In this document: positions 63,142 through 63,901 of the stretch, piece after piece | How positions within the stretch are numbered: position 1 is the first letter of the stretch | Layout of the letters: every line of letters begins with the position of its first letter | Assembly (NCBI RefSeq): GCF_003334815.1 | Contig: NZ_QOWO01000011.1 | Strand: one strand, 5' to 3' | DNA: 64,000 bases | From: Escherichia coli | GTDB lineage: Bacteria > Pseudomonadota > Gammaproteobacteria > Enterobacterales > Enterobacteriaceae | Made by a program: the position numbers and the translations under genes | Notes under the pieces: generated by a model | Databases searched by the model: none | Told to the model about the DNA's origin: nothing | What the model saw: only the letters and a program-made list of their open reading frames with translations

Positions 63142-63309
63142 GTGAAGAAACTCACCGATAAGCAAAAGTCCCGTCTCTGGGAGCTTCAGCGTAATCGTAA
63201 TTTTCAGGCCAGTCGCCGTCTTGAAGGCGTCGAGATGCCTTTAGTCACTCTTACTGCCGCAGAGGCTTTAGCGCGCCTTGAAGAGCTGAGGAGTCACTAT
63301 GAGCGATAA
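63142..63309 (+). CDS. yhfG: Small protein YhfG (proposed antitoxin-like partner of Fic)
   Basis: Hand-translated 55-aa ORF from GTG 63142 (SD gggagg): [55 protein letters not shown]; overlaps fic start by 11 nt. Confidence 0.8.
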
Positions 63310-63901
63310 ATTCGGCGAAGGGCGCGATCCGTATCTTTATCCAGGCCTTGATATCATGCGTAACCGGCTGAACATCCGCCAGCAGCAGCGGCTGGAACAG
63401 GCCGCTTACGAAATGACGGCGCTGCGTGCTGCGACCATTGAGCTTGGTCCGCTGGTGCGCGGTTTACCGCATTTGCGAACTATCCATCGCCAGCTGTATC
63501 AGGATATTTTCGACTGGGCAGGGCAACTGCGTGAAGTTGATATTTATCAGGGTGATACGCCGTTCTGCCACTTTGCTTATATCGAAAAAGAGGGCAATGC
63601 CCTGATGCAGGATCTGGAGGAAGAAGGTTATCTGGTTGGCCTGGAGAAAGCGAAGTTCGTCGAGCGGCTGGCGCATTACTATTGTGAAATCAACGTGCTG
63701 CATCCCTTCCGGGTGGGAAGTGGTCTGGCACAGCGGATCTTCTTCGAGCAACTGGCGATTCATGCCGGATATCAACTGAGCTGGCAGGGTATCGAAAAAG
63801 AGGCCTGGAATCAGGCAAATCAGAGTGGGGCAATGGGGGATCTCACCGCACTGCAGATGATATTTAGCAAAGTGGTAAGCGAAGCCGGGGAATCTGAGTA
63901 A
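63299..63901 (+). CDS. fic: Fic family protein (AMPylation/Fido domain)
   Basis: 200-aa [26 protein letters not shown]; Fic motif [12 protein letters not shown] (HPFx[DE]GNGR-like). Confidence 0.93.

Follow-up and report, generated by a model that had tools for sequence, protein, structure and literature searches.

Is the overlapping yhfG-fic gene pair of Escherichia coli a toxin-antitoxin module, and if so, of what kind is it? The FIC family was founded on E. coli Fic, a protein whose biochemical activity, target and role in the cell have been sought for four decades. The original prediction, which was made from the nucleotide sequence, held that a small upstream gene running into the start of fic gives the pair the layout of Fic-antitoxin and Phd-Doc systems, and that the pair is known but physiologically poorly understood. 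The latter statement holds. The locus is the well-known E. coli yhfG-fic pair (ecficA-ecficT); it was predicted to be a toxin-antitoxin pair in 2009 (Makarova 2009), its complex was crystallised in 2016, and its activity and substrate are still to be assigned. We analysed the pair in a stretch of 64,000 nucleotides of E. coli DNA, referred to here as the window.

In the window, yhfG (ecficA) lies at 63142..63309 on the plus strand and encodes, from a GTG start codon, a FicA-type antitoxin-like protein of 55 amino acids, while fic (ecficT) lies at 63299..63901 on the same strand and encodes, from an ATG start codon, a class I FIC-domain protein of 200 amino acids; both genes are found in the list of open reading frames and in RefSeq. 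They share the 11 nucleotides ATGAGCGATAA (63299..63309, plus strand), in which the fic codons M-S-D-K lie over the final Y-E-R-stop of yhfG, so that the GTG-started 55-codon gene and its 11-nt overlap with the start of fic had been described exactly. A Shine-Dalgarno sequence, GGGAGG (63130..63135, plus strand), precedes the GTG codon by 6 nt, and that of fic, GAGGAG (63288..63293, plus strand), is located within the yhfG coding sequence, 5 nt upstream of the ATG. The pair is flanked upstream by ppiA (62465..63037, plus strand) and, beyond it, tsgA (61013..62194, minus strand), and downstream by pabA, which starts with an ATG at 63933 on the plus strand and within which the window ends (64000). 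Positions 63040-64000 are 100% identical to the sequence of E. coli K-12 JM109, and RefSeq has the same two coding sequences there. An antisense open reading frame of 156 amino acids (63464..63934) was without an NCBIfam match and was treated as a shadow ORF.

The identity of both proteins was clear from family and structure databases. YhfG matched Pfam PF10832 (E=5.4e-24) and the NCBIfam equivalog NF007573 (E=2e-37), and its sequence coincides exactly with that of chain B in PDB 5JFF, which is deposited as 'Uncharacterized protein YhfG'. Fic matched PF02661 (E=1.5e-13) and the NCBIfam equivalog NF007672, and corresponds to chain A of 5JFZ and 5JFF (E ~1e-134), with differences that consist of engineered residues and one natural variant. 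Thus the EcFicT/EcFicA complexes (5JFF, 5JFZ; PMC5033356) represent the very same locus, from which the window differs only by R27 in place of the H27 of the crystallised construct; among orthologues both residues are common at this position (R in 39, H in 34). The relatives of Fic with FIC structures were VbhT, Fic-1, BepA and NmFic. Taken together with the conserved Shine-Dalgarno sequence and start codon and the dN/dS values described below, the Pfam and NCBIfam matches and the identity to 5JFF chain B demonstrate that the 55-codon yhfG frame is a real gene and not a chance ORF.

Evidence on the nature of the pair comes from the structures 5JFF and 5JFZ, in which the EcFicT/EcFicA complexes were described by Stanger, Harms, Dehio & Schirmer 2016 (PMC5033356). 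In that study the two proteins formed a stable 1:1 complex in solution according to SEC-MALLS, with a Tm of 63 °C and a mostly hydrophobic interface of 1641 Å2 (PMC5033356). Both helices of YhfG are engaged with Fic in the crystal, and the SRRLEG segment of YhfG sits inside the Fic active site, where S24 and E28 bind R146 and R25 binds T40 (PMC5033356). The absence of a physical interaction had been named in advance as the outcome that would speak against the predicted pair, and the published structure gives the opposite result (PMC5033356). In the window, the SRRLEG codons occupy 63211..63228 of the plus strand, and the residues S24-RRL-E28-G29 that they encode conform to [S/T]xxxE[G/N], the inhibitory motif of class I. 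In the YhfG alignment S24 was invariant and E28 and G29 were at least 90% conserved; YhfG carried the full motif in 75 of the 80 species, and of the 80 YhfG sequences that could be read, 78 had E28.

Sequence searches with YhfG led to one relative, AntF, which is the antitoxin of the active AMPylase Fic-1. A profile built from 26 YhfG homologues weakly matched AntF (E=0.0022), with the xxLEG motif in the same register, and in the AntF/DUF2559 match the NF/Y-AS-xRLEG segment was likewise in register. A phmmer search of the PDB with YhfG alone returned only YhfG itself and not VbhA, and VbhA was also not found by the 26-sequence profile. Typical type II antitoxins have a DNA-binding domain with which they regulate their own operon. 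For YhfG, DNA binding was predicted from its charge (Makarova 2009); comparison with Pfam and NCBIfam revealed the YhfG family only, and a known DNA-binding domain was not found among these models. The proposed resemblance to a Fic-antitoxin module is therefore borne out by the S24-RRL-E28-G29 motif, by the identity of the two proteins with the chains of the 1:1 complex in 5JFF and 5JFZ, and by the AntF profile match. The locus has a FIC fold, a small upstream gene encoding [S/T]xxxE[G/N] and, from the literature, a 1:1 complex with a glutamate on the second arginine of the FIC motif (R2), which are the features of class I FicTA systems. The toxin-antitoxin-like appearance thus reflects true homology, which was already established (Makarova 2009; Stanger 2016).

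The pair was then compared with known systems. VbhT/VbhA of Bartonella schoenbuchensis (3SHG, 3ZC7, 3ZCB), the prototype of FicTA, shares with Fic/YhfG the fold and the inhibition by a glutamate on R2. However, VbhT is encoded on a plasmid, carries a fused BID secretion domain, is toxic and AMPylates gyrase and Topo IV, and VbhA consists of three helices whereas YhfG has two (PMC5033356). Phd-Doc of phage P1 resembles Fic/YhfG in that a Fido-fold toxin follows a small antitoxin gene and a helix enters the active site; in contrast to Fic, Doc is a kinase acting on EF-Tu with a different signature motif (PMC5033356), and Phd, an antitoxin that binds DNA, belongs to a different family. In our searches of Pfam and NCBIfam no Doc- or Phd-specific model was matched, the best models being NF007672 for Fic and PF10832/NF007573 for YhfG, and we rejected membership of the pair in the Phd-Doc family. 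Hence the likeness to Phd-Doc that had been proposed stands for the fold and the gene layout and falls for family membership. Fic-1/AntF of Pseudomonas bijieensis 2P24 (PDB 8WT0) is, like the E. coli pair, a class I Fic protein with a small upstream partner; the two Fic proteins are 39% identical and align without gaps over 196 residues, and the numbering of H135 and R146 and of S24 and E28 in the antitoxin is the same in both systems.

The FIC signature loop of fic (63701..63736, plus strand) encodes the 12 residues from H135 to R146. The Fido motif announced in the original prediction is present at these residues as a FIC/Fido-type motif, but it is not the canonical AMPylation motif HxFx(D/E)GNGRxxR. 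In ungapped comparison with the active AMPylases Fic-1 (HPFREGNGRAQR) and VbhT (HPFREGNGRTLR), E. coli Fic retains the catalytic H135 and R2 (R146), and the positions of the acidic residue (D/E), the asparagine and the first arginine (R1) are replaced by V139, S141 and L143, respectively. We followed these positions in a comparative set of 80 Enterobacteriaceae loci, with one genome per species and a Fic identity of 64-99%. The histidine, the phenylalanine, both glycines and R2 of the motif were present in 80/80 species. An acidic residue at the D/E position was found in only 1/80, and the asparagine position was occupied by N in 41, S in 38 and T in 1. R1 was kept in 8/80 species and replaced by L, I, M or V in the other 72. 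The 8 species that keep R1 are the most distant of the set; in all of them positions 36 and 67 are E and F, where the others have A36 and Y67, and R25 of YhfG was present in none of these 8 and in 71 of the other 72, a co-variation that, the sequences being related, may represent a single evolutionary event. One of the 8, Edaphovirga cremea, carries the canonical motif HPFRDGNGRAQR at the same locus. This pattern, together with the Edaphovirga motif, indicates from the aligned sequences that the active site diverged in place from a canonical AMPylase and that its partner co-adapted.

The replaced residues bear directly on the reading in which the locus is a fully functional type II FicTA module, whose Fic, once free of a labile YhfG, would AMPylate GyrB and ParE and arrest growth, for example in persisters. 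This reading is favored by the gene layout and by the [S/T]xxxE[G/N] plug, both as in VbhTA and Fic-1/AntF, and by three reviews that, citing Harms 2015, ascribe growth inhibition and/or gyrase/Topo IV AMPylation to E. coli FicT (PMC10886550, PMC8097203, PMC7758455). It is also favored by the fic-1 allele (G55R), which causes filamentation (PMC5033356); the window carries the wild-type G55 codon at 63461-63463 of the plus strand, within fic. However, the original group observed no auto- or target-AMPylation by EcFic, even when the inhibition motif was mutated (PMC5033356). In addition, EcFic (b3361) was assayed on E. coli GyrB and ParE, and the proteins reported to modify them are other Fic proteins, with EcFic not among the positives (PMC7479194); the recombinant proteins in these in vitro assays were tagged, and no more than two candidate targets were tried. 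We gave the later explicit negative of the primary authors more weight than the statements in the reviews, and we flag the discrepancy. Since V139, S141 and L143 replace the residues that position ATP and Mg2+, a role as gyrase/Topo IV AMPylase is improbable. E. coli Fic is, judging from these substitutions, most probably not a gyrase/Topo IV AMPylase and more likely binds some other substrate, and the 'AMPylation targets' whose scoring had been suggested for it may not exist.

The fate of loss alleles also speaks to the toxicity of free Fic. In the type strain of E. albertii, codon 13 of yhfG is changed from TGG to TGA, and fic remains an intact ORF of 200 amino acids with a dN/dS of 0.06 against E. 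coli. Because a stop codon in ecficA was also reported from E. albertii TW07627 by Stanger et al. (PMC5033356), this nonsense codon is probably a feature of the lineage rather than a sequencing error. That a cell can do without the inhibitory helix speaks against free Fic being a lethal toxin, though not decisively, because the lost translational coupling might lower Fic synthesis too. Given this allele, the altered active site, the negative assays and the core, syntenic and by no means patchy distribution described below, we consider a fully functional toxin-antitoxin module quite unlikely.

The gene order ppiA-yhfG-fic-pabA was found in 78 of the 80 species; in one of the 2 exceptions a contig end cuts the locus, and in the other pabA is missing within the flank. 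The 11-nt overlap between yhfG and fic was identical in 78/80 species. In every species of the 80, AGGGAGG was followed by a yhfG start codon, either at the position used in E. coli or one codon upstream; the block cAGGGAGG before yhfG was kept across species, and (G)GAGG upstream of the fic ATG was kept in the commonest junction sequences. Among complete E. coli genomes the locus was present in 5426/5426, with a median of one copy at one chromosomal place, and a match covering at least 80% of positions 63040-64000 was obtained in 5423 of them, leaving 3 without. As in typical type II toxin-antitoxin modules, the genes form a bicistronic overlapping operon, which has one promoter region, upstream of both, and within yhfG a Shine-Dalgarno sequence; the patchy, mobile distribution that also characterizes such modules was not observed, as the pair is present in all 5426 genomes and fixed between ppiA and pabA in 78/80 species. 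It is thus a core, single-copy, syntenic locus, unlike typical mobile type II modules. Our comparative results reproduce the conclusions of Stanger et al., namely that the pair is inherited vertically and that its active site arose by remodelling of an ancestral AMPylase.

As a side observation, Enterobacter sp. kpr-6 was found to carry a mobile toxin-antitoxin module inserted between fic and pabA, consisting of a RelE-family toxin (PF06296, E=1e-36) and an HTH partner, and a second species carries an insert about as large. The kpr-6 insert provides a contrast case, an accessory toxin-antitoxin module in the same neighbourhood.

The distribution of the pair is also what decides against an anti-phage defence pair acting through Fic-mediated abortive infection. 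Fic did match the PDC-S04 models of PADLOC (E=3.9e-75), but PDC-S04 is merely a candidate family, YhfG had no PADLOC match, and the Fic active site is degenerate. A universal, syntenic core pair beside housekeeping genes, and not in a defence island, led us to reject defence as the main reading, and we regard it as extremely unlikely.

Selective constraint was estimated with the Nei-Gojobori method against the window sequence. Within Escherichia, dN/dS was 0.01-0.10 for fic and 0.07-0.28 for yhfG, with ~0.02-0.05 for the neighbouring ppiA; against other genera the values were ~0.04-0.17, and these are rough because dS is saturated there. Both genes are under strong purifying selection, with dN/dS about 0.05-0.1. 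These values enter into the assessment of a further explanation, in which Fic is a dead relic or pseudoenzyme and the pair is kept as a scaffold or chaperone, or for the sake of pabA expression signals in its DNA. Four decades in which no activity was found would agree with such a relic, as would the viability of delta-fic strains (PMC5033356), the E. coli strain MS 21-1, in which fic is split by an ISEc10 insertion, and the position of pabA, 31 nt downstream and following fic in nearly all species. However, a dN/dS of ~0.05-0.1 reflects selection on the protein sequence and not on the DNA alone, G55, T40, Y83, H135 and R146 did not vary among the full-length orthologues (73/73), conservation of the pocket residues being seen within their subgroup; moreover, the 3 genomes without a match over most of the region are the only ones among 5426. 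A pseudoenzyme is accordingly a very unlikely explanation.

The same conservation raises the alternative that the enzyme at work is the Fic-YhfG complex itself, as a hydrolase or an 'eraser' that removes modifications. Among characterised relatives Fic-1-AntF is the closest, both through Fic (E=2e-49) and through the match of the YhfG profile to AntF. Fic-1, with its canonical motif, AMPylates GyrB, and its complex with AntF was shown in 2026 to be a deAMPylase that requires E28 of AntF. In E. coli, S24 and E28 of YhfG and H135 and R146 of Fic are maintained by purifying selection although the AMPylase residues have been lost, which is hard to explain by the silencing of a dead toxin. By analogy, a deAMPylase-like activity could explain why YhfG and its glutamate stay conserved, and we consider this possible but unlikely. 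DeAMPylation by Fic-1-AntF depends on a divalent metal and on a negative cleft that E29, E36 and E139 of Fic-1 make up together with E28 of AntF. E. coli Fic, which carries V139, S141 and L143 in its motif, lacks these acidic residues and has Q29, A36 and V139 at the Fic cleft positions. In addition, no cognate AMPylase was evident at the locus, and loss of YhfG is tolerated in E. albertii. Overall, an eraser or hydrolase appears improbable, to about the same degree as a pseudoenzyme.

The signals around the genes show how the pair may be expressed. Just after the ppiA stop codon, a GC-rich hairpin, GCGCGGGCAA / TTGCCCGCGC (63047..63068, plus strand), has arms of 10 nt that are 100% complementary and a loop of 2 nt, and its position was conserved across species in the spacer alignment. 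The hairpin was not called in a scan for consensus terminators with the criterion of at least 5 T, its T-tract TTCTGCTCT being weak; it is likely the ppiA terminator and the upstream boundary of the yhfG-fic unit. The most conserved block of the ppiA-yhfG spacer was TTGCtGCTTATACTTgtGGCAa, with 70-90% or more per column among 81 sequences. The promoter region (63093..63118, plus strand) contains TATACT (63103-63108), which was kept in 75/81 sequences and which is the -10 element of the RpoS-dependent, stationary-phase fic promoter (PMC5650638). This element lies inside a perfect 7-nt inverted repeat found by repeat search (ATTTGCC at 63093-63099 and GGCAAAT at 63112-63118, plus strand), which is about at chance level (~0.6 expected by our own estimate), so that only its conservation is noteworthy and may be due to promoter function. 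A consensus scan for sigma-70 -35/-10 pairs did not call the fic promoter. The promoter needs no -35 element and works with sequences downstream of -17 (PMC5650638), and the criterion of the scan does not suit such a -35-less RpoS promoter, which accounts for the miss. Rfam at gathering thresholds gave no matches in the whole 64-kb window, so no known RNA element is involved.

Downstream of fic, a spacer of 31 nt (63902-63932, plus strand) containing GGAG separates it from the pabA start codon, and this spacer was 29-34 nt long in 67/78 species. The consensus scan called no terminator-like site on the plus strand between fic and pabA. The spacing fits a co-transcription of yhfG, fic and pabA, and the 11-nt overlap suggests, from the layout, that translation of fic is coupled to that of yhfG. 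The pabA gene has been reported to be transcribed from upstream of fic as well as from inside it.

Considering these lines of evidence together, we propose that the locus is very probably a domesticated, class I FicTA-derived core operon, in which YhfG plugs a Fic protein with an altered active site and which is sigma-S expressed and linked to pabA. The genes yhfG and fic are transcribed from the conserved promoter with the -10 element TATACT, RpoS-dependent according to the literature, and under this proposal the 11-nt overlap would couple translation of fic to that of yhfG and favor co-production of both proteins. YhfG wraps around Fic, and the end of its SRRLEG helix reaches into the active site, where R146, the second arginine, is bound by S24 and E28; YhfG would so act as a stoichiometric active-site plug that keeps Fic inactive. 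Fic has retained its catalytic histidine, the anion-binding glycines and R2, and has replaced the residues for ATP and Mg2+ (E to V139, N to S141, R1 to L143), with the co-varying changes of E36 to A and F67 to Y. AMPylation would thereby have been lost, and another substrate may be accommodated in a remodelled hydrophobic groove lined by A36, F71 and V139, with Y67 and T40 at its border. Transcription would read through into pabA, 31 nt downstream, giving a stationary-phase operon with this gene. The pair would then represent vertically inherited housekeeping or stress genes and not an addictive mobile element.

It is from the structure and the conservation that we infer an inhibitor of an altered enzyme. 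Because both partners and the E28-R146 lock have, across Enterobacteriaceae, remained under strong purifying selection long after the AMPylase residues were lost, and R25 of YhfG co-varies with the remodelled pocket, the conserved unit may work as a holo-enzyme, or as an enzyme under regulation, that has a new chemistry, for example a de-modifying eraser or a transferase that uses a donor other than ATP. We consider such new chemistry unlikely, though deserving of a minor share of belief, and retain the plugged, domesticated operon as the preferred explanation.

Earlier publications already contain the pair and its complex, the degenerate motif, the conserved gene neighbourhood and the nonsense allele of E. 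albertii; gene order, motif, synteny and stop codon were described for ecficA-ecficT (PMC5033356). Our analysis derives these facts anew and independently, from 80 species and from 5426 genomes of E. coli, and adds the observation that the residues needed for deAMPylation by Fic-1-AntF are missing in E. coli Fic too. It also provides a warning that several reviews credit E. coli FicT with gyrase AMPylation or toxicity, contrary to what the primary authors state. The gene pair makes the open question of Fic function no more testable than before. The pair belongs to the class I Fic/FicA family on account of its fold, its gene layout, its inhibitory motif and the complex that it forms; it departs from the canonical form in its AMPylation motif and from mobile, patchy modules in its behaviour, and its toxicity is unproven. 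Under the less likely reading of a new chemistry, the tight linkage to pabA, together with old reports connecting Fic with PABA and folate, points to a possible tie of this pair to stationary-phase folate metabolism or cell division.

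Across the 80 Enterobacteriaceae species compared, one genome each, the composition of the Fic pocket was found to vary together with that of its antitoxin-like partner, YhfG. The canonical first arginine of the FIC motif (R1, position 143 of Fic) is kept in 8 species (loci L058, L064, L065, L069 and L076-L079), all of which possess E36 and F67 in Fic, and in all of which YhfG is without R25. In the other 72 species, position 143 is hydrophobic, and A36, Y67 and the R25 of YhfG are present in almost all. YhfG R25 thus tracks residues 36, 67 and 143 of Fic, and therefore the partner was altered jointly with the Fic pocket. 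This co-variation may represent one evolutionary event, so the species counts are not statistically independent.

The literature on the activity of E. coli Fic (EcFicT) is conflicting. Three reviews (PMC10886550, PMC8097203, PMC7758455) ascribe to it growth inhibition and/or the AMPylation of gyrase and Topo IV. According to the primary authors, adenylylation by EcFicT could not be shown (PMC5033356), and EcFic is absent from the enzymes listed as active in an independent in vitro assay (PMC7479194). The reviews appear to have over-generalised to E. coli FicT from VbhT, YeFicT and PaFicT. Fic codon 27 (63377-63379) encodes arginine in the window, which is identical to K-12 JM109, and histidine is found in the crystallised constructs (5JFF and 5JFZ) and in our E. 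coli representative (L001). Both residues are common at this position (R in 39 and H in 34 of 73 orthologues).

When the region 63040-64000 was searched against 5426 complete E. coli genomes, all but 3 had a match over at least 80% of its length. The search matched 5429 places. One of them lies in a sequence record that carries a plasmid label, and two places occur in each of a few genomes. Among the 3 genomes was that of E. coli MS 21-1 (NZ_CP146670.1; L081:3260-6278), in which an insertion of the IS21-family element ISEc10 (istA/istB) splits fic, and yhfG and pabA are both intact. In Enterobacter sp. kpr-6 (L026:3143-3929), an insertion of ~850 nt separates fic from pabA and carries two overlapping minus-strand genes, one for a RelE-family toxin (PF06296, E=1e-36) and one for an HTH partner (NadS/MqsA-like, with a match below the cut-off). 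This insertion is a genuine mobile type II toxin-antitoxin module that landed beside the fixed yhfG-fic pair. An insert of similar size was observed at locus L034.

Comparison with PADLOC matched Fic (63299-63901) to 4 models of PDC-S04, a candidate family of defence systems, the best of them with E=3.9e-75; YhfG (63142-63309) gave no match. Because the yhfG-fic locus is core and syntenic, these matches probably reflect general Fic homology and not a role in defence. A 156-aa ORF starting with ATG on the minus strand (63464-63934) is antisense to most of fic and probably represents a shadow ORF of that gene's reading frame; it had no match in NCBIfam. No Rfam family reached its gathering score on either strand of the window (1-64000).

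Upstream of yhfG, a perfect 7-nt inverted repeat, ATTTGCC/GGCAAAT (63093-63118), flanks the fic promoter's -10 element, TATACT, and the TTGCtGCTTATACTTgtGGCAa block is the best-conserved stretch of the ppiA-yhfG spacer in the 80 species. The conserved block around the -10 element could be an operator, or could merely reflect promoter conservation.

In Escherichia albertii NBRC 107761 = DSM 17582, codon 13 of yhfG (L004:2344-2511) has changed from TGG to TGA, converting W13 to a stop. The fic gene immediately 3' of this broken yhfG is an intact ORF of 200 aa, 94% identical to E. coli fic with a dN/dS of 0.06. Because Stanger et al. noted a stop codon in ecficA (yhfG) of another strain, TW07627, the stop looks like a trait of the E. 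albertii lineage. Its occurrence beside an intact fic argues that Fic is tolerated without YhfG.
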